Both the position numbers and the translations under genes were made by a program. Of a DNA stretch of 64,000 nt, positions 34,001-63,365 are shown in pieces. The notes beneath the pieces were generated by a model. It did no database searches. It was not told where the DNA came from and worked only from the letters and a program-made list of their open reading frames with translations. The stretch covers positions 288,001 through 352,000 of the forward strand of contig OZ218778.1 of assembly GCA_965112635.1 (NCBI GenBank), written 5' to 3'. This stretch comes from an uncultured bacterium. Lineage in GTDB: Bacteria > Oederibacteriota > Oederibacteriia > Oederibacteriales > Oederibacteriaceae. Position 1 is the stretch's first letter; each line of letters starts with the position of its first letter.

Positions 34001-34077
34001 TGGTGGGCCCTGTAGGACTCGAACCTACGACCAAGAGATTATGAGTCTCCTGCTCTGACCAACTGAGCTAAGGGCCC
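34001..34077 (-). tRNA. tRNA with CAT anticodon, Ile2 (lysidine) type
   Basis: GGGCCCTTAGCTCAGTTGGTCAGAGCAGGAGACT-CAT-AATCTCTTGGTCGTAGGTTCGAGTCCTACAGGGCCCACCA; cloverleaf with encoded CCA; resembles ileX rather than Met tRNAs. Confidence 0.93.
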
Positions 34078-34088
34078 GATCAAAAATA

Positions 34089-34293
34089 TAATAATGCGTT
34101 TCCGCTAGAGGGCCTTTAAGTCGTAACAGCTTTACGACTAAAGGGCCCCACACCTTTACGCCAAAGGGCGCAACTTTAATAATGCGTTTCCTCTCGTGGA
34201 GCCCTTATATCGAACAACGGTTCGATAAACAGGGCCCATGCGTTTAATTGCTCGGATCCTTAATTCGCAACAGTCTTGCTAATAAAGGGACTC
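34089..34293. repeat. Three tandem structured repeat units (leader motif plus bulged hairpin)
   Basis: (TAATA)ATGCGTTT leader at 34089, 34177 and 34238, each followed by a hairpin with compensatory changes between copies. Confidence 0.7.
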
Positions 34294-34319
34294 AAATAAA
34301 AATAATAATCCGTTTTTCT

Positions 34320-34575
34320 ATGCTGAATAAGTGTTTTTCACGATCATTCAGCAGACTGCTACTCCGAGACTCTCTTTTGTACCCCTGCGGGGTACGCCTT
34401 CGGCGATCGAGGAATCTCATCCTTCTTAGTGAGCTGAAAAAGTCTCTCAATAGACTCTTTACACTCTTTATAGCCCTCGCATGAGGGGTCCCCGCACAGG
34501 CTCACGAGCTCAAGCTCGCATGCTTGAGCATGTGCCTGCGCACCTGGAGGGCGTGGGGACTTTTGCAGCGGACTG
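34320..34575. repeat. Palindrome-rich intergenic region, MITE/REP-like
   Basis: Inverted repeat GCTGAAAAAGTC/GACTTTTGCAGC enclosing nested hairpins; also TACCCC/GGGGTA and CGCCTTCGGCG. Confidence 0.5.
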
Positions 34576-35070
34576 TTAATTCTTTTTGTCCGGCTCAAAA
34601 TTCTTTTCATTGAAAAAACTCAATATTCTTTCCGGTTTTTTGGGGAGCGCGTCGCCCGGGATCCTGTCGCACTCGATCTTGGTCAGGAACGAGTAGAGCT
34701 GCTTGGCGGTATATTCGACGATGCCCTTGATCTTGGCCAAAGCGCCGAGGTCTTCAAAAAGGATGACCAGGACGCTTCTTTCTGAAACACGCTTCATATA
34801 AATGTTCTTGTTTTCCCCTTCATGGAAGAGCACCTTGATCTTCTCGTCCCCCAGGTATTTGGCCAGTTCATCGGTGACCAGGAAGTTACAGGCGATCAAA
34901 GAAGCCAGCTCAGCCGGATTTCCGGCCCTCATGCGGCCCTCTCTCGTGATCAGGGCCCCGGACTCATCGATAATGTAGGCCTCGCTGGCTTCGGAACGCG
35001 ACAACAATTCGGCCAGATAGCGGTTGAGCACCTGGGTCATTTGGGAAGATATGAACAAATTTCGTTTCAT
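34576..35070 (-). CDS. Roadblock/LC7 (MglB-like) protein
   Basis: IIDESGALI, LASLIACNFLVTDELAKYLGD, LFHEGENKNIY, matching the MglB pattern. Confidence 0.88.
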   Translation of the reverse strand: MKRNLFISSQMTQVLNRYLAELLSRSEASEAYIIDESGALITREGRMRAGNPAELASLIACNFLVTDELAKYLGDEKIKVLFHEGENKNIYMKRVSERSVLVILFEDLGALAKIKGIVEYTAKQLYSFLTKIECDRIPGDALPKKPERILSFFNEKNFEPDKKN

Positions 35071-35112
35071 CGGGCACGATCCTTCCGGGAAGCCGGGGGT
35101 CTGGCGCGGCGG

Positions 35113-35472
35113 CTACCCCATTTTACGGTAATAGAGCCAGCCGCCCAACAGGGTCAAAAGCCCCGCCAGCAGCAGGCAGAACATCGAAACGGTACGCAGT
35201 TTCATGCTGAGCTTATAAAATTCGGGGTCCACGGCTATGTATTTAACGATGAACAGGTTCGTAAAAAAATGGATCGCGGCGGAGATGACCAGGAGCAGGG
35301 AGCCTATGAACGGCAGGACCTCCAGGAACCGGCGTTCGATCAGGCCGAGCAACCTCCCCACGACCAACCCGTACAGGACCATGGCCAGGGCCAGCAATAA
35401 AAGGGCCGCCTCGTAAATAAAATGCCCGCGGGGCACCCCATGCAGCAAGGCGCGGAAATTCAACATGAACAT
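35113..35472 (-). CDS. Small 3-TM membrane protein
   Basis: Three hydrophobic helices; starts immediately after the upstream stop. Confidence 0.8.
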   Translation of the reverse strand: MFMLNFRALLHGVPRGHFIYEAALLLLALAMVLYGLVVGRLLGLIERRFLEVLPFIGSLLLVISAAIHFFTNLFIVKYIAVDPEFYKLSMKLRTVSMFCLLLAGLLTLLGGWLYYRKMG

Positions 35473-35853
35473 TTAAAACTCCCAGTCTTTCTTAAAATGG
35501 GACAGCCTGGCCAGCGTCCGGTAGACCAGATAGCACCCGACCGCGCAGGAGATCCCTGATAAAAAAAGGAGGACATAGGCGATCTGTCTTTCCAAAATAA
35601 ATTCAACCACGCCGCCCTGCCCCGGGCCGGCCTGGACCAGGGTATAGACGGTATACAAAAGGATGCCCGAGGGGCCCCATTGCAGCAGTTGCCAGCCGGT
35701 CGGCGTCTCAAAGGAACGCTCCAGCTGGCGGGCGATCAGGCCGAGCATAAAAAAGGCCGCCCACAGCGCGACCCCTCCCAGGACCGCGACATAATTGGTC
35801 AGGGTGATATAGAGCAAATATTCGTTCGTGGACAGCAAAGATTTTATCATCAA
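35473..35853 (-). CDS. Small 3-TM membrane protein
   Basis: Three hydrophobic helices; overlaps the upstream stop. Confidence 0.8.
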   Translation of the reverse strand: MMIKSLLSTNEYLLYITLTNYVAVLGGVALWAAFFMLGLIARQLERSFETPTGWQLLQWGPSGILLYTVYTLVQAGPGQGGVVEFILERQIAYVLLFLSGISCAVGCYLVYRTLARLSHFKKDWEF

Positions 35854-36704
35854 ATCTCCAGGTCGATGATCCGGGAAAAAAGGTTCTTTATTTCCAGGGA
35901 AAGGGTGTCCGACTTACGCGCCCCGACCAAAGAACGGCAGCGGCGTTTTAACCCGTCGTGCAGCCGGTAGAACTGTTCCCTGGTAAAGCTTTTCAGGTGG
36001 GGCAGCCTCTTTTTGAAGTTCTGGTATTCAAGAAAAAGAAGATAAGATCCGTACCCGGGGATGAATTTCTCGCAGATGCCGCGCATTTCCTCCAAAACCC
36101 TTTTTTTCTGCAGGGTCAGGTCCACGGTCCTCATGGTGTGGGTGCCGGGACAATCCCAGCGGGTCCAGGACGCACCGGCGCCGGAAAGATCGGCCAACGG
36201 GAGCTGTTCCAGGAGCTGGTCATAGGGCGGCGAGAAAAAACCCACGATATTCCCGTCAGCGCAATAAACATAATGCTGTTCCCCCTCTTTTTCCAGCAAA
36301 AGCCCGGAAAGGGCCGTGTTTCTTTCCACAAAATTTTTAAGCTCCGGGATGGTCCTGGGGATCTCCCCGGGAGGGACGGTCCGGCCCGTCCCATGAATCA
36401 AACCCAATAAGGAAGACAGCAGGTCATAATCTATCTTGCAGATGTCCAGAAAAGCCCGGCTGGACTTGATCTTATCCAGCACCTTCACCAGGCCGTCCAG
36501 CCCCAAAGTTCGGTCCCCCTCGTATTCAAATAAGGCCGCGATCAATTCACTATCCCTGATAAAGATCAATCCTTCGGCATCGTCAAAAACGGCCCTGACA
36601 TAGCCGACGAAATTTTCCGAGCCCAGGCTGCCCAGGACCTGGCCGATATTAACATAGGTGGTATCGAGGTTTTTCTGGAGGACCTTGCCTTTGGGATACC
36701 GCAT
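35850..36704 (-). CDS. Hypothetical protein with a DUF2226/PATAN-like N-terminal domain
   Basis: PKG..NLDT.YV...L....FVGYV......GLIF pattern recalled from GTPase-associated proteins; TGATG coupling to the upstream gene. Confidence 0.65.
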   Translation of the reverse strand: MRYPKGKVLQKNLDTTYVNIGQVLGSLGSENFVGYVRAVFDDAEGLIFIRDSELIAALFEYEGDRTLGLDGLVKVLDKIKSSRAFLDICKIDYDLLSSLLGLIHGTGRTVPPGEIPRTIPELKNFVERNTALSGLLLEKEGEQHYVYCADGNIVGFFSPPYDQLLEQLPLADLSGAGASWTRWDCPGTHTMRTVDLTLQKKRVLEEMRGICEKFIPGYGSYLLFLEYQNFKKRLPHLKSFTREQFYRLHDGLKRRCRSLVGARKSDTLSLEIKNLFSRIIDLEI

Positions 36705-37975
36705 CAGCTGTACATCCCCCCGTCCTGGTCCGGATCGAAAGAGCTTTGGCTCATTCTTTTGATCTCTTCCAGGAACCAGTTTATCTTGTTGACCATCTCC
36801 AGCTCATGGACCTTGTGAATGTTTTTTTGGATGGCCATCCTCCACTTGTTATAAAGTTCCAGGGCCGCCTCATCCCCGAATATCCTCTTTGCAATGGAAA
36901 ACCGGTTCCGGAGAAAATCAAAAAATGAATAAATAAAGATATCCTTTTCCTCATAATCGCCCAATATCCTGGAGGCATCCAGCTTCAGGAACATGAACTG
37001 CGCCTCCGGACCGGTCTTATCCAGCAGGAAATAGTTTTTACTGAAGAGAGGTCTGTCCACATGGTCCAAAACTTTCTGCGCGTGTTCTCCCAGCTGGGCC
37101 GTAAAAATATTATTGCTCTGTTCGATCAGGCTGTTGAAAAATACCAATGGGACCGAATCTTTTCTCTGCCCGGCGGGCTCCGGGGCCGGCTTTCCAGGCT
37201 TTACCGGCTGCGCGGTGTTTTCGAGGGGAGCCAGGTTCTTTTCATAGGCCTTCAACAGGCCCGCCTCGATCTCCACAGCCAGCTCTTCCTCTTTTTCGCG
37301 CTGATCCGTTGTTTGCAGCCTGATCAGGGCCTGGACTTTCGCTCCCAGTTCTTTCCAGACTTCCGGATATTTTTTGTCGATACCGGTCGCCAAACTGTCT
37401 TCGATCAGGTTTTTGATCCGCCAGATCTTCCTGACCAGGATAGGGGATACCGGCGCGGCAGGGTCCTGGCCGGCCGCCGGCTGTTCGTCCGGTCCGGCCT
37501 CTTCATCATCATAAAAGGATTCTTTGAACGATTCAAGGCCGACCACTTTTTTTTCGCACCGGTCCAGGATTCTTTTCAGTGCATTCTGGGTCTCTTTCAC
37601 TTTGGCCCTGATCTGCCCCAGCAAATTTGCGTGTTCGAACAGGATGATGAGAAGCGTCTCTTCACTGACCGACTGGAGATAGGCGCTGAGTTGCTTGTCC
37701 CTCTGGAAGATCAGCGAAAAACTTTTTTCTCCGACCTTCTTGGCCACTTCTTTGGTGGTGGCGTAATCCCCGGCCGCCAGCGCGGCAATGGTCGTCAAAT
37801 TTTTGTCCTTGGACTCGCCGGCATAGGCAATGACCTTCCCTGCCGTATCAATGAGCACCCCGAGGTTCACCTCATGGTCGCTGGAGTCCAGCAGCTTCTC
37901 CAGGGTCTCCTGGATGGCGGTTAGGGCCTCGTCCGGGATCAGAACATTAACATTACCGTCCTTGAGTTCTAACAT
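36704..37975 (-). CDS. Roadblock (MglB-like) domain with a long unknown helical C-terminal extension
   Basis: LIDTAGKVIA, IAALAAGDYATTKEVAKKVGEKSF, LLGQIR; acidic/Pro linkers followed by about 250 aa of unknown sequence. Confidence 0.85.
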   Translation of the reverse strand: MLELKDGNVNVLIPDEALTAIQETLEKLLDSSDHEVNLGVLIDTAGKVIAYAGESKDKNLTTIAALAAGDYATTKEVAKKVGEKSFSLIFQRDKQLSAYLQSVSEETLLIILFEHANLLGQIRAKVKETQNALKRILDRCEKKVVGLESFKESFYDDEEAGPDEQPAAGQDPAAPVSPILVRKIWRIKNLIEDSLATGIDKKYPEVWKELGAKVQALIRLQTTDQREKEEELAVEIEAGLLKAYEKNLAPLENTAQPVKPGKPAPEPAGQRKDSVPLVFFNSLIEQSNNIFTAQLGEHAQKVLDHVDRPLFSKNYFLLDKTGPEAQFMFLKLDASRILGDYEEKDIFIYSFFDFLRNRFSIAKRIFGDEAALELYNKWRMAIQKNIHKVHELEMVNKINWFLEEIKRMSQSSFDPDQDGGMYS

Positions 37976-37994
37976 GCGACTAGAGGTCCTTTCC

Positions 37995-38576
37995 TCATTG
38001 GTAAACTCGCTGGAGAGCCAGTTCTGTCGCGGTCCTCAGGGTATCCATGACCCCGACCCCGTGCCTGGCAATGGCCTGATGGTAAGGATCACCGTTGGGA
38101 TTGAACCGGGATTGCAGCTCTGCGAGAGACAAACTCTTTTGAATATCGGCTTTGTTGTATTGGATCACCCGGGGGATATCCTGAGGGGCGACCTCGATCG
38201 CCTTGAGGTCTTGTTCCAGTAATTTCAGGCTTTGCTCGTTTTCCTCGGCCTTCGAGGCCTGGGAATCCACGACAATGACAATGACATCAGAGCCTTTCAG
38301 GATGAGTTTGCGGCTGGCGTCATAGTATTGCTGGCCGGGCAGGGTATAGAGATGCACATAGATCCTGTAACCGTCTATATTCCCCAGCATGACCAGTAAA
38401 AAATCAAAGAAAAGAGTGCGTTCGGTCGCTGTGTCCAGGGTCAGCAAATCTCCCCTCATGCTCGGAGAAACATACTTGCATATCTCTCTTAGATTGGTTG
38501 TTTTGCCGCCAAGACCGACCCCGTGATAAGCGATCTTGAAAACGATCTCCTTGGTTTGTTGATTAACGGTAGCCAT
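37995..38576 (-). CDS. mglA: MglA-family small GTPase
   Basis: GVGLGGKTTNL, ERTLFFDF, TLPGQ, QYNKAD, GVGVMDTL. Confidence 0.93.
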   Translation of the reverse strand: MATVNQQTKEIVFKIAYHGVGLGGKTTNLREICKYVSPSMRGDLLTLDTATERTLFFDFLLVMLGNIDGYRIYVHLYTLPGQQYYDASRKLILKGSDVIVIVVDSQASKAEENEQSLKLLEQDLKAIEVAPQDIPRVIQYNKADIQKSLSLAELQSRFNPNGDPYHQAIARHGVGVMDTLRTATELALQRVYQ

Positions 38577-38749: not shown

Positions 38750-40189
38750 CTACCAGCGGATCGCTCCGCCCAGCTCATCGTTGATCTTGGAATGGGCCTG
38801 ACCTACCAGGTCCGAGGCCTTGGAGATCTTATCATTAGTCAGGTCAAAATTCCCCTGATTCACGGCCTGGCTGGCCTCGTCCAGATCGGCATCGATCTGG
38901 CTGAGCAGTTCCGTGACCAAAGAACCATACCCCCTTCTCTGGATCTCCTGGACAGCCTCCCGTTGCTTCTCTATCTGGACCGACAGTTTTTTGACCATCG
39001 CCTGATCAGGAGTAAGCGTGGCTGTGGGAAGAGGAGTGAAAGTTTCCGTGGGTGTGGAGGTGGGCCTATGTTTGTGCCGGATAACCGGTGTCGGGGTTGG
39101 AGTCACGGTGGGCTGGCTGGTGGGTAATGGAGTCGCGGTCGGACTATAACCGCCCCTGGGACCTCCAGCAGGAAGGTTCGCGGGAGTTTTAGCCGGAACA
39201 CCCGGAACCTGTTTGTGGGGTGCTAGGTTCCCCTCTTGCTGGCCCCATCCCCTTCCGGTTGAAAATCCATAGGACAAACTGGCCAGATGGCTCATGCCCA
39301 GGTCGCCCCAGAGCGAAAGAGCATAATCCAGTTTCCACGTGTCATAATAAAAGCCCACTCCCGTATAAAGGCCGGCAAGGCCATCCAGCATCCGGTCATT
39401 CAGATCATAAGCATATCCCGTTCTGAGCGCCAGGAAAGACAAGACCCTGTACTCCCCTCCCATCCTGATCTCAGGATCATCATCCATATCTTTGGTTAGA
39501 TCGGCGTCGATCAGCAGATGGTGGTCCAGGGTACTCGTAGCCACTCCCAGCCTGAGCAGGGCAGCCTGGTCACTGCCCACGGAACGGAACTTCACAGGCT
39601 GTCCGATATTCCCAAAATACAAACCCGCCTGCATCCAGGAAGAGAGCTGATAAACCAGACCAAGGTCGACGGAAAAGGCGCTGGCGCTGTCAATGTCGAT
39701 GATCTCCTGGGCCATTTTTAAGGCCAATCCCACGGAAAGGTCGTCATTGAGCTCCAGACCGTAGCCGAGGGTATAGGCATAATCGCTAACGGTAAAGGAA
39801 CCGATCGGCCTATCATTCTCGTCATAAGCGTCTATCGGGGGACCTTGTAGGACAAAGACGCTTCCGGCGATGGTTCCAAAATTTTTCAGGGGCAAGGCCA
39901 CGGCTCCCGCGGAATAGCTCATATTGGCGAGATAACTGCTGAAGCCCAGTAGAACCTCCGTGTTCTTCAGGGACCCCAGTCCGCCGGGATTATAGAACAA
40001 CGAGTTGACATCCGTGGCGCAGGCTGTGTAGGCGCCTGCCATCCCCATGGGCCTGCCTCCAGATTCCAGATTCAAAAAGGTAAGCGAGTTCTGGCCTCCG
40101 CTGGTGCCCCGCATCTGGGGAGGCAGAATAAGAGTCATCGACACCAGCAGCATAAGCATCCAGACGTTGTTTTTGGGGCTCATTTTCAT
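38750..40189 (-). CDS. PorV/PorQ-like outer-membrane beta-barrel with Pro/Thr linker and coiled-coil tail
   Basis: FLNLESGGRPMGMAGAY, SLFYNPGGL, LRTGY, DYAL..WGDLG.SH..SLSYGF. Confidence 0.82.
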   Translation of the reverse strand: MKMSPKNNVWMLMLLVSMTLILPPQMRGTSGGQNSLTFLNLESGGRPMGMAGAYTACATDVNSLFYNPGGLGSLKNTEVLLGFSSYLANMSYSAGAVALPLKNFGTIAGSVFVLQGPPIDAYDENDRPIGSFTVSDYAYTLGYGLELNDDLSVGLALKMAQEIIDIDSASAFSVDLGLVYQLSSWMQAGLYFGNIGQPVKFRSVGSDQAALLRLGVATSTLDHHLLIDADLTKDMDDDPEIRMGGEYRVLSFLALRTGYAYDLNDRMLDGLAGLYTGVGFYYDTWKLDYALSLWGDLGMSHLASLSYGFSTGRGWGQQEGNLAPHKQVPGVPAKTPANLPAGGPRGGYSPTATPLPTSQPTVTPTPTPVIRHKHRPTSTPTETFTPLPTATLTPDQAMVKKLSVQIEKQREAVQEIQRRGYGSLVTELLSQIDADLDEASQAVNQGNFDLTNDKISKASDLVGQAHSKINDELGGAIRW

Positions 40190-42591
40190 CGGACCACCGC
40201 CAGTCTTCCTATCTTGCGGTTCCCGGTTTTTTTATCAGTGGCGATCCAGATATATAGGTCGCTTCCTACATCCACCCCGTCCTGATTTTTCAAATCCCAA
40301 ATAATGTCGCCTGGGCTGGTTTCTTCCAGGGTAATTACATGCCTGATATCCACGGTGTAAATGGCCACGGAAACCTGGGCGGTCAATCCTGTGAAATGGA
40401 TCATAGTGACCCCTTTATAGACCCGTGCCGGGTTGGGATAGGGGTGCATTTGAGTAAGGTCGGAAGGGACGGTCGTCACTGTGGGTGTCAATGAAGGGGT
40501 CAAAGTCTGGGTTCTCGTTCCTGTCATGGTACCGGTCAGAGTGACCGACCCGGTTGCCGTAGCGGTTGCGGTCAAAGAAGGGGTCAAGGTCTTAGTGATC
40601 GTGGCTGACGCCGAAGCAGTAGCCGACGCCGAGGCGGTAGCCGAGGCGGTCGCAGAGGAGGTCATAGTACTCGATATAATCGCTGTGAAGGTAGGAGAAC
40701 TACTGACCGTACTCGTCCCTGTGGCTGTAGCCGTCGGCGATGAGGTCCGGGTGGCGGTTGAAGTGCCGGTAGAGGCCAGGGTCTGGGTGGCCGTGGCTGT
40801 CGCTGAAGCAGTAGCCGACGCCGAGGCAGTAGCCGAGGCGGTTGAAGTGCCGGTAGAGGTCGGGGTCGGAGTAGCGGTGAAGGTGGTTGAAACAGTATTG
40901 CTGGGTGTTGCTGTCGCAGTGGTGCTCCAGGTATGAGTAGGGGTGGGAGAAGCAGAACTGGTGGAAGTATAGGTTGCGGAACATGTGTCTGTGGCGGTCG
41001 GGGAGTCAGTAGCAGAAGCAGTGGGGGTAGGCGTCTGAGTGGCACTCTTAGTGGCAGTCTCACTTGATGTCGCAGTGGCGGTATGAGTGTCTGATGCTGT
41101 CGCCGTACTCGTGCTGGTTACCGTGGCCGAAGCTGTGGCTGTTGCTGAGCTGGTGCCAGTAGGGGTCGCCGACTCTGTCCCTGTGATTGTACTGGTCTCC
41201 GTGGCCGTAGCTGTGGCTGTTTCAGTTCCCGTAGGGGTCTCAGTGGCTGTAGCAGTTTCTGTGGCAGTGGATGTTTGAGTTTCTGTCTCTGTACCTGTCG
41301 CTGATGTAGTGGCTGTCTCCGAACTGGTGCAAGTGGGGGTCGCCGACTCTGTCGCCGTGCCTGTACTGGTCTCCGTGGCCGTAGCTGTGGCTGTCTCCGA
41401 GCTGGTGCCAGTAGGGGTCGTCGTCTCTGTCGCTGTGTCTATACTGGTCTCCGTGGCGGTTGGCGTCGGAGTGATGTTCAACAAAACGGAGATATTATTA
41501 TCGCTGTAATTCGCTACAGCCATATCGAGCTTCCCATCCCCGTTGAAATCCCCCGCAGCCACGGAAAAAGGATTAGTTCCTACGCCATAATCCGTCTTGG
41601 CCAGGAACGTTCCATCCCCTTTTCCCAGGAGCAGGGAAATGCTATCAACCCCGGTTTGTCTATTTGCCACAGCCAGATCCAGGTGACCATCCCCGTTAAA
41701 ATCCCCAACGGCAATGGAAAAGGGATTATTTCCTACCGCATAATCCGTCTTTGGCCAAAACGTCCCATCCCCCTTCCCCAGAAGAATGGAAACTGTACAA
41801 GGGCTCCCTGCATAATTCGCCACCGCCAGGTCCGGTATCCCGTCCTCGTTAAAATCTCCCACAGCCACGAAAAAAGGCATGCTTTCCACGGCATAATCTG
41901 TTTTGGCCCCGAATGTCCCGTTACCGTTATTCAGAAGTATGGAGACGGTATCGCTTCCAGCATTCGCCACAGCCAGATCCGGGGCCCCATCCCCGTCAAA
42001 ATCCCCCACAGCAACGGATTGAGGACTGCTTCCTACGCCATCATCTGTTTTGGCCCCGAATGTCCCGTTGCCGTTATTCAGAAGTATGGAGACGGTATCG
42101 CTTCCAGCATTCGCCACAGCCAGATCCGGGGCCCCATCCCCGTCAAAATCCCCCACAGCAACGGACGAAGGATTACTTCCTACGCCATAATCCGTCCTCG
42201 TAGAGAAAACCCCTGCCGGCCCCTGAAAGAGTATAGAAATAGTATTGCTGCCCCCATTTGCGACAGCCAGATCATTATCCCCGTCTTGGTCGAAATCCCC
42301 CACAGCCACTGATTGAGGACCGCTTCCTACGCCAAAATCCGCCTTGACCCCGAACGTCCCATTGCGGTTATTCGGAAGTATGGAGACGGTATTGCTTCCC
42401 TGATTCGCCACCGCCAAGTCCGGCCACCCGTACCCGGTAAAATCCCCTACTGCCACGCAATAGGGAGAAGCGCCCACGCCATAATCCGTCCTTTGGAAGC
42501 AAACCGACTGCGAAAAAGCACAGACAGAGGTAAATACAAGGGATATCCAGGCAAGATGAAAAAATAGATATTTTTTTAATACTAATACCAT
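40186..42591 (-). CDS. Secreted FG-GAP/VCBS repeat protein with Thr/Ala/Ser linker and T9SS-like C-terminal domain
   Basis: Seven GDFxxDGxxDLAVAN repeats, about 330-aa TAT/TPT linker, YPNP...IYT...WDLKNQDG...Y...GRLAVVR. Start at ATG 42591 after AGGAG. Confidence 0.88.
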   Translation of the reverse strand: MVLVLKKYLFFHLAWISLVFTSVCAFSQSVCFQRTDYGVGASPYCVAVGDFTGYGWPDLAVANQGSNTVSILPNNRNGTFGVKADFGVGSGPQSVAVGDFDQDGDNDLAVANGGSNTISILFQGPAGVFSTRTDYGVGSNPSSVAVGDFDGDGAPDLAVANAGSDTVSILLNNGNGTFGAKTDDGVGSSPQSVAVGDFDGDGAPDLAVANAGSDTVSILLNNGNGTFGAKTDYAVESMPFFVAVGDFNEDGIPDLAVANYAGSPCTVSILLGKGDGTFWPKTDYAVGNNPFSIAVGDFNGDGHLDLAVANRQTGVDSISLLLGKGDGTFLAKTDYGVGTNPFSVAAGDFNGDGKLDMAVANYSDNNISVLLNITPTPTATETSIDTATETTTPTGTSSETATATATETSTGTATESATPTCTSSETATTSATGTETETQTSTATETATATETPTGTETATATATETSTITGTESATPTGTSSATATASATVTSTSTATASDTHTATATSSETATKSATQTPTPTASATDSPTATDTCSATYTSTSSASPTPTHTWSTTATATPSNTVSTTFTATPTPTSTGTSTASATASASATASATATATQTLASTGTSTATRTSSPTATATGTSTVSSSPTFTAIISSTMTSSATASATASASATASASATITKTLTPSLTATATATGSVTLTGTMTGTRTQTLTPSLTPTVTTVPSDLTQMHPYPNPARVYKGVTMIHFTGLTAQVSVAIYTVDIRHVITLEETSPGDIIWDLKNQDGVDVGSDLYIWIATDKKTGNRKIGRLAVVR

Positions 42592-42883
42592 GGAGCTCCT
42601 TTTAAATTGCCTTTTTTTCCCCTCGCCCTTTAGTCGGATCTGTGTGGACAGGGACTTGAAAAAAGGCCGAAAGGAATAGGCCAAATACAACAACACCTGT
42701 CCATTCCTTTGGAGAAAGGCGATGGGCATTAAAATAGGTTTTATGATCAAGATAAACTTGCATAAGACTGATTTCTGGTACGGGATAAAAAAGGCCCAGA
42801 AAAACTTTCCCAGTAACGGTTTAGTCCCGGCCCTCAGAAAGGAATACTACTTCTCGCAGCAGACTCAAGCGGAATGACGAGAG

Positions 42884-57937: not shown

Positions 57938-60037
57938 CTATTTGATAATATGAGGTGTCAAGAATATAAGTAACTCGATCTTCTCCTTGGTAACTGAGCT
58001 ACCTTTAAATAACATGCCAAGTAAAGGAATATCGCCTAGAACAGGGATCTTATATTCCTGTTTTTGGTCCTGATCCTTGATCATACCTCCAATAACAATG
58101 GTTTGACCATCCTGGACAGCCACAACACTGGTCACCGCCCTAGAATTGGTGGGGGGCGGACCATTGGCAATCGCGGCGCCGGTCTGAGAAACCACATTCA
58201 CAGTTAGAGGATGCAACGTGACCGTCTTATCATCGTTGCCAATCTCTGGTTGAATGCTTAAGGAAATCGGCAAATTTAAAAAATTAACGGTCTGAGTAGT
58301 TATAGTTTCAGGAGGATTCCCAGTGCTGGTGGTTGTCGGCACTCCCAAATAAGGAATGGTATCTTGGATAGTAAAATTAGCCAGGGTTCGGTCGAGAGCT
58401 GCAATTTTGGGGGTAGAAAGAATATTCGCTGTTCCTACTGACTCCATAGCAGCAAGCTGGGTAGAAAGGGCATGAGTATCTTGAATGCTTCCTATATTCA
58501 AATACGAAGTCATTGCATTACTGGCAATACTATTGTTACTCAGAAATGCGGTAGTGGGGTTCGCAGTTTGAAGGTTGCCCTGTGGTCCGTTAGTTAATTT
58601 CCAATTGATTCCCAAATCAGTTTCTTTATTCAGAGATACCTCAACTAACATCGCCTCGATCATAACTTGCTTCAAGGGGATATCCAATTGTTTGATCAAA
58701 CTTTCAATGGCAGGCATATTGTCAACAATATCTGTGACCACCAAACTGTTTGTTCTGGGATCGATCACCACCTTGCCATTTGAACCTTTTGACATAACAG
58801 AACCCTTAAGGATATCTGCGATCCGCTGCAAATTCGTTACATTCCAATCTTGAGCAGCACCGCCAGTCAGAACAGGGTCAGTGCTGGGAAAATTGAGGGT
58901 GAACACGCGGGTCACGATTGTTCCGGATGGCTCACTGTTTTGCGAAGCCTTTTTCTGAGTTGCCTGGCCAGAGGTGGCGCTCTGTACAGATCCTTTTTTT
59001 ATTGGTATCGCTAAGGCTCCTAGATCCACCATCGTTTCTTTTATTACTTCAAGATCATCGTCGGTACCTTTTAAAATAATATTGTTATTGGTTGTATCGG
59101 CGGTTAATTTGCCAACCCCAGTTTTGAGAACAGTGGAAAGCTGTCCCTGCAAAGTGCTAACATCTGCATTTTGTATAGTCAGCACTTCTGTGCTCTGGGG
59201 CAAAAGAGCTTTTTGAGCGGCAAGATCTTGCGCCATCCCCACATAAATCATACCTCTTTGAACATCAAAGTCATAATTTCCTGTTATTTGACCTACCACC
59301 ATACCTAAGGCCTCGAGAACCGTTACTTTGTCCGCCTTCACGGTTATCAACAAGCCTTGTATACTCTTATTGATAGTAATACCCAACCCTGCCTCAGCAG
59401 CCAAACCTGTTAACACCCCCGTAGCTTCCCCGCTTGTCACATCCAGAGAGACTAATTTCTTCAGCTTTTTCTGAGTAGCTTGGGGAGACAAGGGAACAAC
59501 TTCTGACGGTAGCGCCTCAAAGCCAAGATCCGACTTGCTCTTTTCTTCCTTTTTAACCGCAAAGAACAGCTGTGTGTCTGTTTGAAAAACTTGGTAAGCC
59601 ATAGCCTGTGTTAACTGAACAACCACCTTCACTTCCGCAGGAACTTTAATAACAGTATTAGTTACAGAGACGATATCCCCTTCGGAACTAGTCAATTCTA
59701 AAGGAGGGCCCATTAAAACCGCCTGGGGAATATTCAAAACTACTTGGTTCTTGGCAGCGCCTTTGGTCACCGTATATTTCAAATGGCTATCGCTGGTGAT
59801 CACCAGCTGAGACACTTCCTCTAGCTCCCTAATCTCCATATCCGTGATCTTAATAAGTTCAACTTCAGAACCTGTCGCTGGCGTTAATGCGGAAGAAGGT
59901 TTTGCAACTGCAACGGCCGCCTGGATCTGACAAACCTCTGTCAATAACATCAGCACTAATAATGTGAAAATTAATTCCACACCAGTATTGGTAATGCCCA
60001 AACCTTTTCTCTCCAGCCTCCCTTTCACCTGCATCAC
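57938..60037 (-). CDS. pilQ: Type IV pilus secretin
   Basis: AMIN-like N-terminus, IDPRTNSLVV, QVMIEAMLVEV, DGQTIVIGG, KIPVLGDIPLLGMLF, LLIFLTPHII. Confidence 0.93.
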   Translation of the reverse strand: MMQVKGRLERKGLGITNTGVELIFTLLVLMLLTEVCQIQAAVAVAKPSSALTPATGSEVELIKITDMEIRELEEVSQLVITSDSHLKYTVTKGAAKNQVVLNIPQAVLMGPPLELTSSEGDIVSVTNTVIKVPAEVKVVVQLTQAMAYQVFQTDTQLFFAVKKEEKSKSDLGFEALPSEVVPLSPQATQKKLKKLVSLDVTSGEATGVLTGLAAEAGLGITINKSIQGLLITVKADKVTVLEALGMVVGQITGNYDFDVQRGMIYVGMAQDLAAQKALLPQSTEVLTIQNADVSTLQGQLSTVLKTGVGKLTADTTNNNIILKGTDDDLEVIKETMVDLGALAIPIKKGSVQSATSGQATQKKASQNSEPSGTIVTRVFTLNFPSTDPVLTGGAAQDWNVTNLQRIADILKGSVMSKGSNGKVVIDPRTNSLVVTDIVDNMPAIESLIKQLDIPLKQVMIEAMLVEVSLNKETDLGINWKLTNGPQGNLQTANPTTAFLSNNSIASNAMTSYLNIGSIQDTHALSTQLAAMESVGTANILSTPKIAALDRTLANFTIQDTIPYLGVPTTTSTGNPPETITTQTVNFLNLPISLSIQPEIGNDDKTVTLHPLTVNVVSQTGAAIANGPPPTNSRAVTSVVAVQDGQTIVIGGMIKDQDQKQEYKIPVLGDIPLLGMLFKGSSVTKEKIELLIFLTPHIIK

Positions 60038-61074
60038 TCCTCTCCCTCTTTGAGGTTAAAATTTATTTCCTTGTTCCCCTGAGTTAAAATTACATCCTTA
60101 TGGTCAATAATGCCAGTAACTCCCTTGATTTTCCAATTGTGGTTATCCAAGAGCCTTCCTTTCCTCAGTAAATAGACACTACCCGGCTTTGTCTTATCCC
60201 GGAAAATAGCCTCATTCCCTTCCTCCCCGGCGACATAACCGGTCAATTCTAAATTATTAATGTCAACTGAACTCAAATCGATATTATTGGTATAGGGTTC
60301 AAAGGGATTTCTCCGATTTTTTTCTTCATATACTGTCAGAGGTTTTATCCGCAATATGTCCTCATTGCCTCCTGGCTCCTGCGACATCCCCAACTTTATT
60401 CTCGCCTTTGAGGCCTCATAATACTCCATATCTTCCGGGCCAATCTTATCATACTCTTTGAGAGCTTCTTGGATCTTGCCGGTCTTCTCAAACCATTGAG
60501 CAAGGGTGAAATGAGCATAAGAATTTTTTGGGTCAACGCTGATCCACTTTAACAAACTTTTATAAACGTCCTTGGTTTGCCCTCTCCTTGAATATTCTTC
60601 AACAAGACGTTGGTAAGCCAAAGGATACGGAAACCGAAAAACGCAGTTCTGGTAAGATTTTAAAGCATCATCCCACATTCTTTTCTTGGCATAAAGATCG
60701 CCTTTGGCGATTATAGGTACAAAATCCATAGCATCCCATTTGGCGGCCAATGAATATTCAGATAAAGCTTTGTCAAAAACACCCTGGTACACATAGGAAA
60801 GGCCCAGATACATATGCGCTTGGCTAAAAGATGGATGGAGAGCGGCTTCCTTTTGGATTAATGCAAAACTTTTCTGGAACTGGTCAACATCTATCCTTCC
60901 CCCACTATACCAAGGTAAAGCTTCTTCAATTGCATTAATAGTGTTTTCAAACGAAGTGGTATCGCCATATACAGAAGAAAAAAGACCACTATGTAGAAGC
61001 ATAACAATAAAGACAGCTAATAAAAAATATTTTCTTAGGATCACAACAAATTCCTTTATATAATATTTAGTCAT
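60034..61074 (-). CDS. TPR protein with a C-terminal PilP-like domain
   Basis: Signal peptide, TPRs, then YEEKNRRNPFEP..LELTGYV; occupies the pilP position. Confidence 0.7.
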   Translation of the reverse strand: MTKYYIKEFVVILRKYFLLAVFIVMLLHSGLFSSVYGDTTSFENTINAIEEALPWYSGGRIDVDQFQKSFALIQKEAALHPSFSQAHMYLGLSYVYQGVFDKALSEYSLAAKWDAMDFVPIIAKGDLYAKKRMWDDALKSYQNCVFRFPYPLAYQRLVEEYSRRGQTKDVYKSLLKWISVDPKNSYAHFTLAQWFEKTGKIQEALKEYDKIGPEDMEYYEASKARIKLGMSQEPGGNEDILRIKPLTVYEEKNRRNPFEPYTNNIDLSSVDINNLELTGYVAGEEGNEAIFRDKTKPGSVYLLRKGRLLDNHNWKIKGVTGIIDHKDVILTQGNKEINFNLKEGEE

Positions 61075-61083
61075 CGATGCTCC

Positions 61084-61644
61084 CTAATGACCTGTGGTAT
61101 ACGCTAGAAGAGTCATGGTGATTCTCAAATTGGAAATCTTAGGTTTTGTCACATCGTATTGAATAGTGGTCACAAAAGCAGCTAAGGGTATCGGGGAAAC
61201 CCTCAAGTTACTGAGTAAATGACAAAAATTATTAAAATTGGTCGAGATGTTCATATCCATACAGATGGCATTGTAACCAATGCCCCCCGCATCCCGCCTC
61301 AAAGTCTTTCGGGGAGGATTGATGCCAGTATAAGAGACCCTGCTGTCCGCCATCAATTGCGTGATTTCATTGATCAAAGCAGGATAGCTTAAGGTATCGG
61401 GCAGCTTTCCCTGTAGATACTGTTGTAATTTGATTAACTGTTCACCTTTAAATTTTGCTAAATCGTACTGCTTAGCAACGGTCCTAGCATTTTCTAGCTT
61501 GCTCTTTTTATCCTGCAACTCAGAAAAACTTTGGGTAATCGCTTTGTCTAAAGGAATATAAATGTATCCAAAAAAACCATACAAAGCGACAATCACGACA
61601 ACCCCTATGACGATCCACATTTGCACCTTTTTTGATATTTTCAC
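61084..61644 (-). CDS. pilO: Type IV pilus assembly protein PilO
   Basis: N-terminal TM, coiled coil, KLPD; position in pilMNO-Q. Confidence 0.8.
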   Translation of the reverse strand: MKISKKVQMWIVIGVVVIVALYGFFGYIYIPLDKAITQSFSELQDKKSKLENARTVAKQYDLAKFKGEQLIKLQQYLQGKLPDTLSYPALINEITQLMADSRVSYTGINPPRKTLRRDAGGIGYNAICMDMNISTNFNNFCHLLSNLRVSPIPLAAFVTTIQYDVTKPKISNLRITMTLLAYTTGH

Positions 61645-61665
61645 CTAAAATCTCCGCTTAAATTT

Positions 61666-62250
61666 TTATAAATCTGGATACAAAGTATTTTTGCTTTCGC
61701 AGGTTATTCTAAATTGATAGAACGTTGTTCCGTTCTGTATGCTTTCTGTTATAGCGCCCAGAATGGACACATTAAACAAAGGACTCTGTCCAAGATTATG
61801 ATAAAACTCCAGAATGCGGTCCCTGTTGATTGAATAACCATCGATGTCGACCAATTTACCCGTTTTAGTCTTATCGGCACTCGTGGCCTTCCCCAAAGCC
61901 GAAATCCAAACCCCTTGGGGCAAACGAGCGCTCAAATCGTCCAAAAAAGACAACCAGACGGTTTGGTCTCCGGAAATGGATTCTAGAACAGCCATCTGAT
62001 CCTTTACTGATTTTTCTCTTGTCTCGATCTCCGTGACAAGATTGACCTTATCAATGAGTTCGGGAGCATTGAGCGCAACTTCCACTTGGTCAATCTCCTT
62101 TTTTATTTCATTAAGCACAGCAAGCTTCTGGAAATATAACCATCCAAGGACCAAAATCAGCAATCCGCCTGCCCCAATGATTAAGCTGTTCTGGAAACGA
62201 GAAACTCTTGCTTCCCTAATCTGAGGAGGCAGTAAATTTATCTGTATCAA
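61666..62250 (-). CDS. pilN: Type IV pilus assembly protein PilN
   Basis: IQINLLP, TM helix, LPQGVWI. Confidence 0.9.
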   Translation of the reverse strand: MIQINLLPPQIREARVSRFQNSLIIGAGGLLILVLGWLYFQKLAVLNEIKKEIDQVEVALNAPELIDKVNLVTEIETREKSVKDQMAVLESISGDQTVWLSFLDDLSARLPQGVWISALGKATSADKTKTGKLVDIDGYSINRDRILEFYHNLGQSPLFNVSILGAITESIQNGTTFYQFRITCESKNTLYPDL

Positions 62251-62252
62251 AT

Positions 62253-63365
62253 TTAGACCTTTCTTACGGCCAATCCTACTACAACAGGAAACAAAGCCGC
62301 TTTTTTACTTAGTGTATCTACCACATCCTGAGGGGCATCAATATTCTTAAAAGGGTTGTTCCACTCCACGGGAATCCCCAATTTTTCTTGCAAATACTTC
62401 TCCAAATTCTTTATTTCGGCGCTGCCGCCGCTTAATAGCAACTTTTGGATCGGTTTCTTTTTGGGTAAAGTTTCGTAATAATCAAAGAACTTCCTGATTT
62501 CAGAAATTAATTTGTTTAAAGTTGGACTGATGGCTTCAAAAATTTGGATCGAGCGATCTTCTTTATTGGGCATCCTCAAAAGAGAAAGATCGTCCGATTC
62601 CACCAGGATGCTGGCTTGAAGCTTTTTTAACTCTTCTGCCTGCTCAAAGCTTAAATTGAACTCGCGCTGTATGTCCTTGGTCAGATTTTCTCCGGCGACA
62701 AAAATATCCCGGGTAATCCTCATGTTGCTGCCTTCCATAATACTCACAGTGGATATTTTGGATCCGATATTTAAAAGGACCGTGGCGTCTTCTCCAAGCT
62801 CTTTGCCATAGTTCATCTCGAAAGCGTTGCAGAGGGCGAAGCAATCGACATCGATGATGATCGACCTCAACCCAGATTCCTTAAGGATCTTTAAATGCCT
62901 GTCCAAAACATCGTGTTTGGCGCCGACCAACAACACTTCGATCTTCTTTTGGTTATCTTCGGTGACCTCTCCCAAGATCTGAAAGTTAAGAGCGAATTGA
63001 TCCACATTGGGGATATATTGCTCCGCCTCGTATTGTATGACCCCCTTCAGTTCCTCTTGGCTCATCGCGGGTAATTTAACATTCCTCACGATGACGGCCT
63101 CGCCGGAAAGAGAGGTCACAACATTCCTGCTGTTGATCTTGTTTTCCTTAAAAATCTTTTTTATGGTTTCGGTCAGCAGGACTTCTTTTAACTCGGGGTC
63201 CAATTCTTCATCGCCGACCGACTCCGGCTTGGCGATATTCACGACTCCGCCTTTGACCCATTTCCATCCCTTTGAGGTCTGTTTCAATTGAACGAACTTG
63301 ATGGTGTAGGTGCCGATGTCTAACCCCACCAAGTTCGTGGACAACATTTTCTCAACAACACCCAT
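62253..63365 (-). CDS. pilM: Type IV pilus assembly protein PilM
   Basis: VGLDIG, EAEQYIP, IDVDCFAL, LSGGSA, VGLAVR. Confidence 0.95.
   Translation of the reverse strand: MGVVEKMLSTNLVGLDIGTYTIKFVQLKQTSKGWKWVKGGVVNIAKPESVGDEELDPELKEVLLTETIKKIFKENKINSRNVVTSLSGEAVIVRNVKLPAMSQEELKGVIQYEAEQYIPNVDQFALNFQILGEVTEDNQKKIEVLLVGAKHDVLDRHLKILKESGLRSIIIDVDCFALCNAFEMNYGKELGEDATVLLNIGSKISTVSIMEGSNMRITRDIFVAGENLTKDIQREFNLSFEQAEELKKLQASILVESDDLSLLRMPNKEDRSIQIFEAISPTLNKLISEIRKFFDYYETLPKKKPIQKLLLSGGSAEIKNLEKYLQEKLGIPVEWNNPFKNIDAPQDVVDTLSKKAALFPVVVGLAVRKV

Follow-up and report, generated by a model that had tools for sequence, protein, structure and literature searches.

The Ras-like small GTPase MglA and the Roadblock-domain protein MglB form the polarity switch of Myxococcus xanthus and Thermus thermophilus. 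Arg53 and Gln82 are the intrinsic catalytic residues of MglA and define its family, and MglB works as a dimer, binding MglA in a 2:1 complex (PMC3199381) and showing GTPase-activating protein (GAP) as well as guanine nucleotide exchange factor (GEF) behaviour (PMC13408092). A second protein type, PATAN, carried in Pfam under the name DUF4388, is a membrane-localised output domain in cyanobacteria, and one cyanobacterial PATAN regulator stays at the membrane without pilB1 or pilC, for which further anchoring proteins were postulated (bioRxiv 10.1101/2021.06.11.447907). An alpha-helical insertion is a named feature of PATAN (bioRxiv 10.1101/2021.06.11.447907; title of Makarova et al. 2006, via PMC4316618). 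Some MglA genes lie near PATAN genes (PMC4316618), and genome surveys have reported MglA, MglB-type Roadblock and PATAN genes in one another's neighbourhood since 2006 (Makarova et al. 2006, cited in PMC4316618; also bioRxiv 10.1101/2021.06.11.447907). Here we describe an operon of this kind in a 64,000-nucleotide stretch of the genome of an uncultured bacterium of the Oederibacteriota (contig OZ218778.1, positions 288,001 to 352,000; hereafter the window). It encodes MglA, two Roadblock proteins, a PATAN-like protein and two small membrane proteins, TMa and TMb. PATAN, TMa and TMb make up a fixed cassette found across the phylum, and the partner of this cassette varies by class.

Operon layout and recurrence of the six-gene set

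Six co-directional open reading frames (ORFs) on the minus strand span positions 34576-38576 of the window. From the 5' end of the operon they are as follows (aa, amino acids):

37995-38576, minus strand: mglA, Ras-like small GTPase of the MglA family, 193 aa
36704-37975, minus strand: long Roadblock protein (RbL), 423 aa, with an MglB-like domain at about residues 13-144 and a 280-aa extension
35850-36704, minus strand: PATAN-like protein, 284 aa, with an N-terminal alpha/beta domain (1-190) and a C-terminal four-helix bundle (196-284)
35473-35853, minus strand: TMa, small membrane protein, 126 aa from TTG or 125 aa from an ATG 3 nt downstream
35113-35472, minus strand: TMb, small membrane protein with three transmembrane (TM) segments, 119 aa
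34576-35070, minus strand: short Roadblock protein (Rb), 164 aa, MglB-like

An initial annotation, made from the sequence alone, had described a tightly coupled six-gene operon, and the ORFs lie where it had placed them, with gaps of 19, -1, -4, 0 and 42 bp from mglA to the short Roadblock gene. The genome (G000) is a single contig of 2.88 Mb; it contains one MglA match and one PATAN-TMa-TMb cassette, and the two are joined in this operon.

The relatives compared share only the phylum with the window genome, and none of them belongs to its family. With the PATAN-like protein as query, matches were found in six of 41 related genomes, G000 counted. Four genomes of one family (G003, G017, G023 and G029) contain all six genes, in two orders. 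Order I, mglA-RbL-PATAN-TMa-TMb-Rb, is that of the window and of loci L011-L013, and places Roadblock genes on both sides of the cassette, while order II, PATAN-TMa-TMb-mglA-Rb-RbL, is found at L014-L017. Three of the genomes (G003, G017 and G023) hold both orders, and a further order-I locus (L089) is cut by a contig end. The grouping of the six genes is more than chance, since the set recurs in other genomes in two orders.

A metagenome scan returned 18 loci, four of them duplicates of loci already fetched. Among the 14 distinct ones, TMa directly follows the PATAN-like gene in all nine with enough downstream sequence, and mglA is in the expected place in five, the rest being cut. The co-occurrence of the membrane and PATAN-like genes with mglA elsewhere had been set beforehand as the point on which the proposed system could fail, and the neighbourhood survey found it at seven further genome loci and one cut locus, besides the 14 distinct metagenome loci. 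The genes flanking the six-gene set in the relatives (M23 peptidase, ParA-type ATPase, PGA_cap, O-antigen ligase and proteins without assignment) include no consistent extra partner. The four genomes of the family named above carry four to six mglA paralogues each (L089-L108), nearly all of which are followed by one or two Roadblock genes.

The PATAN-TMa-TMb cassette and its partners

A TMa profile detected the family in 41 of the phylum's 99 genomes; among the 60 of good quality the number is 30. Of 57 listed places, 49 cassette loci were examined; the eight omitted are mostly weaker second copies or lie at contig ends. Iterated searching combined with ORF clustering showed PATAN, TMa and TMb in one order and on one strand at each of the 46 loci uncut by a contig end. 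MglA and Roadblock genes stand beside the cassette at eight of the 49 loci, the window included, and Roadblock genes are found at none of the other 41.

The remaining cassettes fall into two classes. Those of class A have PATAN proteins of 437-764 aa, and a motif related to the MshE type that binds cyclic diguanylate (c-di-GMP) scored above its cut-off in 13 of 13 proteins scanned (L018, L049-L058, L060 and L078). Some class A cassettes are followed by a kinase, a sigma-54 regulator and an extracytoplasmic function (ECF) sigma factor. Class B cassettes have PATAN proteins of about 255 aa that are DUF4388-positive (1.8e-15), and in 20 of 25 loci with a downstream gene TMb is directly followed on the same strand by a small gene of the receiver cluster; one such receiver was checked against Pfam (Response_reg, 2e-31), and the others are assigned by BLAST clustering only. 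A hybrid kinase in which no sensor domain was recognised is often found upstream in class B. In order II, mglA occupies the slot that the receiver gene holds in class B. Two further arrangements were observed: several of the long PATAN genes of class A are preceded by a gene for an MrfA-type helicase, and in class B (L061-L088) the downstream genes often encode the receiver, a 300-aa protein of no assigned family with a weakly kinase-like C-terminus, and an ankyrin-repeat protein of 550 aa.

In a maximum-likelihood tree of TMa plus TMb (47 rows), each class forms one side of a branch, with supports of 100/99 for class A, 100/97 for order I (C1), 81/91 for order II (C2) and 67/64 for class B, and the two MglA-linked classes join weakly (79/94); since shared descent alone would cluster the class labels, the tree is a sign of consistency and not of co-evolution.

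These results alter one part of the initial annotation. It had noted that the operon, unlike the conservons, lacks a kinase, and this holds, as Pfam and NCBIfam scans detected no histidine kinase and no CvnC-type protein among the six products. Its further idea that the small membrane proteins simply take the place of the kinase is not supported, as they belong to a PATAN/TMa/TMb cassette that mostly occurs without MglA and is then paired with a receiver or a c-di-GMP motif.

Operon proteins and genomic surroundings

The window MglA is similar over its full length to solved M. xanthus MglA (E 7e-48, residues 1-189, about 50% alike) and to T. thermophilus MglA (E 2.6e-44, residues 1-189/191). 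The catalytic Arg and Gln that had been read from its ERT and PGQ motifs are confirmed: the motifs G19-x4-G24-K25-T26, E52-R53-T54, P80-G81-Q82 and N141-K142-x-D144 are invariant, R53 and Q82 included, across 13 aligned relatives of the phylum.

Both proteins annotated as Roadblocks match solved MglB, the short one at E 9e-12 and the long one at E 4e-13. The short protein exceeds the Pfam Robl_LC7 cut-off of 23 bits (35.7 bits) and the long one falls just below it (22.4 bits). Each scores 56 bits with the NCBIfam MglB model (E 4.6e-15 and 4.3e-15, respectively), and as the cut-off of this Thermus-type equivalog (NF052242) is 200 bits, they are treated as MglB-like and not as equivalogs. In M. 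xanthus MglB, A64 and G68 are small residues in the hydrophobic, MglA-binding patch of helix alpha-2 (PMC3199381); the corresponding residues are Ala/Glu in the long Roadblock protein, Ala/Ala in its three orthologues and Leu/Glu in the short one. One short and one long Roadblock gene are present at each MglA-linked locus, and on this ground the two unlike proteins most likely pair as a heterodimer that sets the nucleotide state of MglA. The division into separate GAP and GEF/effector subunits proposed in the initial annotation is putative. The 280-aa extension of the long protein consists of two low-complexity linkers and helical regions and is conserved in the three orthologues. It has no match in Pfam, in the sequences of solved structures or in the Atlas, where the best score of 0.80 is a lead only. 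A resemblance by eye between this extension and the C-terminal bundle of PATAN proteins was dismissed after a profile comparison gave a probability below 1%.

The 284-aa PATAN-like protein has no match in Pfam at E ≤ 1, in NCBIfam or among sequences of solved structures, and a word-indexed protein search retrieved only the query itself. A full-library search gave 106 matches at E ≤ 0.001, six of them at E ≤ 1e-30, the others sharing mainly the first 100-170 residues. The designation DUF2226/PATAN-like given initially is upheld only indirectly, through these relatives, as DUF4388 was detected in 32 of 40 taken from the 106 and DUF2226 in three, and finds no direct Pfam match in the protein itself; the eight of the 40 without DUF4388 include the query and its six closest relatives. 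No DUF4388 match above the cut-off (PF14332, 25 bits) occurs in the whole G000 genome. A profile of the MglA-linked proteins aligned with DUF4388-positive cassette proteins over 225 columns, the C-terminal part included, at a probability of 55% (E 1.2e-4), and iterated searching of the examined loci retrieved every PATAN protein of the cassettes. Given that Pfam is silent and the profile support is 55%, the protein is named PATAN-like and is not filed as a member of the Pfam family.

AlphaFold2 models of the PATAN-like protein are confident, with a predicted local distance difference test (pLDDT) score of 92.9 for the whole and 94.1 for residues 1-195; the predicted chain folds into a two-lobed alpha/beta domain and then a four-helix bundle. 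Foldseek searches of the PDB with the whole model and with its N-terminal part gave nothing at E ≤ 0.001. VIA-align gave a best Z of 5.5 for residues 1-195, and for residues 196-284 only generic helical-bundle matches (best Z 8.0); none of these solved structures is a convincing counterpart. No Roadblock or longin match appeared in these fold-search lists, a negative that does not make the fold a new one. The MshE-related c-di-GMP motif is absent from the protein (NCBIfam, E ≤ 1). A complex prediction of MglA with the PATAN-like protein (score 0.00, mark 0.32, run without controls) is evidence neither way.

Two proteins of three TM segments each had been annotated downstream of the PATAN-like gene. 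Kyte-Doolittle hydropathy agrees for TMb, which has three clear segments, while TMa has two strong ones and a third that is only marginal; both have almost no extracytoplasmic sequence. They are probably distant paralogues (profile comparison, probability 87%, E 3.7e-6), a score to be read with the tendency of membrane proteins to inflate such comparisons. The TMa positions conserved in 90% or more of the 49 members are W31, G38, R43, T52, P61, G63, Y67, Y93 and S99 in window numbering; no variation occurs at G38, G63 and Y67, conservation at T52 and P61 reaches 98%, and the consensus R43 is Q in the window protein. In TMb (47 sequences), H68 in the second TM segment is invariant, and Y20 and E21 at the start of the first are kept in at least 94%. 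Neither protein matches any Pfam family at E ≤ 1, MotA/ExbB/TolQ included. Relatives of TMa in a database of 5.8 billion clusters number 69, all unnamed and without Pfam domains. In the Atlas the nearest cluster is also unnamed (0.95), with Chloroflexota the commonest among few labelled members, a label that is unconfirmed. A search of genome contigs for related loci, with the PATAN-like protein and TMa as queries, found none.

The spacer upstream of mglA is 173 bp long, and that downstream of the operon, which ends at a tRNA-Met gene, is 541 bp long. In a promoter and terminator consensus scan the sites were no more numerous than in shuffled sequence, so the transcript ends are not defined. 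Within the downstream spacer, two copies of the motif GGAAACGCATTATTA occur at 34078-34330 (minus strand), each near GC-rich inverted stretches. The tRNA-Met (CAT) gene lies at 34001-34077 (minus strand), and a URO-D-like ORF of 373 aa, given a TTG start at 34034, overlaps it; since the listed start overruns the tRNA, the true start of this ORF must be further in. Two long ORFs on the plus strand, 34822-35400 (192 aa) and 37061-37924 (287 aa), overlap operon genes and are most likely not genes, because the minus-strand proteins have homologues.

Two neighbouring gene groups were considered as sources of a target:

57938-63365, minus strand: pilM, pilN-like, pilO, tetratricopeptide repeat (TPR) protein and pilQ secretin cluster, 19.4 kb from the operon
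38750-42750, minus strand: genes for a PorV/PorQ-family outer-membrane protein and an 854-aa FG-GAP protein, overlapping by 4 bp, directly upstream of mglA

The type IV pilus genes that had been placed about 20 kb away are thus present, separated from the operon by glycine-cleavage, lipoate-ligase, rpoD, dnaG and shikimate-pathway genes. PilM (PilM_2) is found in 97 of the 99 genomes of the phylum, which makes co-occurrence with the pilus uninformative. Downstream of the cluster are genes for chorismate synthase, shikimate kinase and dehydroquinate synthase.

The PorV/PorQ-family neighbour of mglA scores 136 bits against a cut-off of 90, and the FG-GAP protein has Thr/Ser-rich linkers and a tail that matches the C-terminal sorting domain of PorZ, of the type IX secretion system (T9SS). 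The genome has an unusually large set of 37 PorV-family matches, 31 of them above the cut-off. A PorV-family neighbour within 14 kb would be expected by chance at about 15-18% of places, and was observed at 13 of the 49 cassette loci. With 37 such matches in the genome, the link to PorV and T9SS is not clearly above chance and is taken as a weak lead.

Proposed working, alternatives and comparison with known systems

The following proposal starts from what was observed, namely the six genes and how they are conserved, the families to which their products are assigned, the partners that alternate between classes and the confident fold of the PATAN-like protein. The operon would be one signalling machine of two units. 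In the first, MglA, with its own Arg53 and Gln82, and the two different MglB-like Roadblock proteins would form a GTPase switch; in the second, the soluble PATAN-like protein would be held at the cytoplasmic membrane by TMa and TMb, as in the cassette found across the phylum. In relatives, the signal would enter the cassette through a c-di-GMP-binding insert of the PATAN protein or a CheY-like receiver whose gene directly follows TMb, and in the class of the window MglA and the Roadblock proteins would replace these inputs. The effector unit may then act on a membrane machine; the analogy to the PATAN regulators of cyanobacteria makes the type IV pilus motor the first candidate. We put at roughly one half the probability that the GTP and GDP states of MglA are the switch and that PATAN, TMa and TMb are a membrane-bound effector with TMa and TMb as its anchor. 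MglA is read as the switch because the cassette is constant and its variable part receives a cytoplasmic signal in two classes, and on account of the cyanobacterial PATAN literature. An effector and anchor role is preferred to a sensor role because the cassette exists without MglA, paired with a receiver or a c-di-GMP motif.

Several points weigh against this proposal. MglA occurs in only seven of the 99 genomes, at 21 places; at E ≤ 1e-10 it was not found in the 92 others, that is, in all but the four-genome family, G000 and two f9 genomes. A Roadblock gene adjoins it at 19 of the 20 places outside G000, and eight of the 21 are joined to a cassette, with one more probably so and cut by a contig end. 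At the remaining 12 MglA has Roadblock genes and no cassette within 1.5 kb, and it is therefore not dependent on the cassette. The loci belong to related genomes within a single phylum and cannot count as independent, and the TMa and TMb tree is subject to the limit of shared descent given above. The assignment of the 284-aa protein to PATAN is indirect, resting on relatives and on a profile of modest probability. A search of longer proteins found no fused form of TMa, a point of little weight. Each physical contact, the direction of the signal and its target are inferred: the direction is taken by analogy, and a single-domain receiver could equally be an output, and the link to the pilus rests on analogy from the literature.

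The free occurrence of each part, MglA with Roadblock genes at those 12 places and the cassette without MglA at 41 of 49 loci, is what would be expected if the two were unrelated modules that happen to be neighbours in one lineage. Such mere adjacency is very improbable, as the joined set is conserved in two gene orders, which stand side by side in G003, G017 and G023; moreover, in order I the Roadblock genes flank the cassette with reading frames that overlap or abut, and the MglA-linked TMa, TMb and PATAN proteins form sequence classes of their own.

The conserved gene set could also be read in the opposite direction, with TMa and TMb sensing a cue in the membrane or envelope and passing it to a platform of PATAN-like and Roadblock proteins that acts on MglA as an exchange factor or as an inhibitor of its GAP; MglA would then diffuse to its target, and the operon would be a kinase-free counterpart of the conservon. 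The invariant His and near-invariant Tyr-Glu of TMb and the invariant polar or aromatic residues of TMa could form a sensing site, the layout of class B (hybrid kinase upstream, free receiver downstream) fits a cassette on the input side as well, and MglB has both GAP and GEF behaviour (PMC13408092). However, TMa and TMb have hardly any sequence outside the membrane on its far side, and PATAN is an output domain in cyanobacteria (bioRxiv 10.1101/2021.06.11.447907). The c-di-GMP motif found in all 13 class A proteins also speaks against it, since a signal-binding motif within the PATAN protein places PATAN downstream of a cytoplasmic signal. We regard this sensor arrangement as rather unlikely, though well short of negligible.

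Less probable still is that TMa and TMb form an ion-conducting or energy-coupling unit, similar to a stator. The PATAN-like protein and MglA would then gate its activity, much as MglA steers the Agl/Glt gliding motor of Myxococcus. The conserved ionisable residues E21 and H68 of TMb lie in or at the edge of TM segments, the two small subunits appear paralogous, and the PorV/PorQ-family gene with its cargo-like FG-GAP neighbour stands directly upstream, similar pairs being present near 13 of the 49 cassette loci. Against this, the Pfam search described above linked neither protein to MotA/ExbB/TolQ or any other family, and PorV-family genes are so common in the genome that the 13 loci are not clearly in excess of chance.

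The reading of MglA as switch and of the cassette as membrane-bound effector can be taken further, tentatively and with the odds against it. TMa and TMb may be the membrane receptors of PATAN, and PATAN, TMa and TMb a general adaptor between switch and membrane, with input from a phosphorylated receiver, from c-di-GMP or from a Ras-like GTPase. The operon would then be a counterpart of membrane-anchored platforms of Roadblock proteins and GTPases, in which heterodimeric Roadblocks tune MglA, which in turn gates a membrane complex responsible for positioning a surface machine.

No explanation is known for the co-location of MglA, Roadblock and PATAN genes, and what holds PATAN regulators at the membrane is a question raised by the cyanobacterial work. 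The locus and its relatives provide concrete candidates in TMa and TMb, whose genes always follow that of PATAN. As one cassette would be driven by three different switches, the set of loci amounts to a natural experiment. How a bacterial G protein addresses the membrane, and what the docking partner of PATAN is, can both be tested with a few small proteins. The whole case is comparative, and the TMa/TMb family was traced within one phylum. No literature on membrane partners of PATAN was found in the available portions of the sources; supplementary table S2 of PMC4316618 (MglA neighbourhoods), which lay outside the search, may hold similar loci.

Among described systems, the MglA/MglB polarity switch of M. 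xanthus and T. thermophilus shares with the window the similarity of MglA over its full length, Arg53 and Gln82, and an adjacent gene for an MglB-type Roadblock protein. It differs in having one homodimeric MglB where the window has two unlike Roadblock proteins, the longer with a 280-aa extension that has no known relative, and the window operon also includes a PATAN-like protein and two membrane proteins. The PatA-type PATAN-REC regulators of cyanobacteria (PixG, PixE and LsiR) likewise couple a PATAN-type domain to a molecular switch, which in the class B relatives of the cassette is also a CheY-like receiver. In the window, however, the switch is a separate protein (MglA here, a separate receiver in relatives), and the PATAN-like protein has diverged beyond the reach of the Pfam model, lacks the helical insert of c-di-GMP type and has a C-terminal four-helix bundle. 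Its gene is always followed by those of two dedicated membrane proteins, and none are mentioned in the available text of bioRxiv 10.1101/2021.06.11.447907. The actinobacterial conservon (CvnA-CvnD) resembles the operon in that genes for an MglA-family GTPase and a Roadblock protein accompany that for a membrane component (PMC4316618). The window has neither the sensor histidine kinase nor the CvnC-type protein of that system, and its membrane component is a pair of 3-TM proteins, each about 120 aa long and lacking an output domain.

In the eukaryotic Ragulator-Rag system, unlike Roadblock-domain proteins pair and hold a small GTPase at the membrane through a separate anchor subunit. The likeness would be one of analogy, with no sequence relation beyond the Roadblock fold, and the anchor in the window would be integral membrane proteins reached through a PATAN-like adaptor. 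New in comparison with all of these are the TMa and TMb families, the constancy with which they are coupled to PATAN, and the presence of MglA and two Roadblock proteins in place of a receiver or c-di-GMP input.

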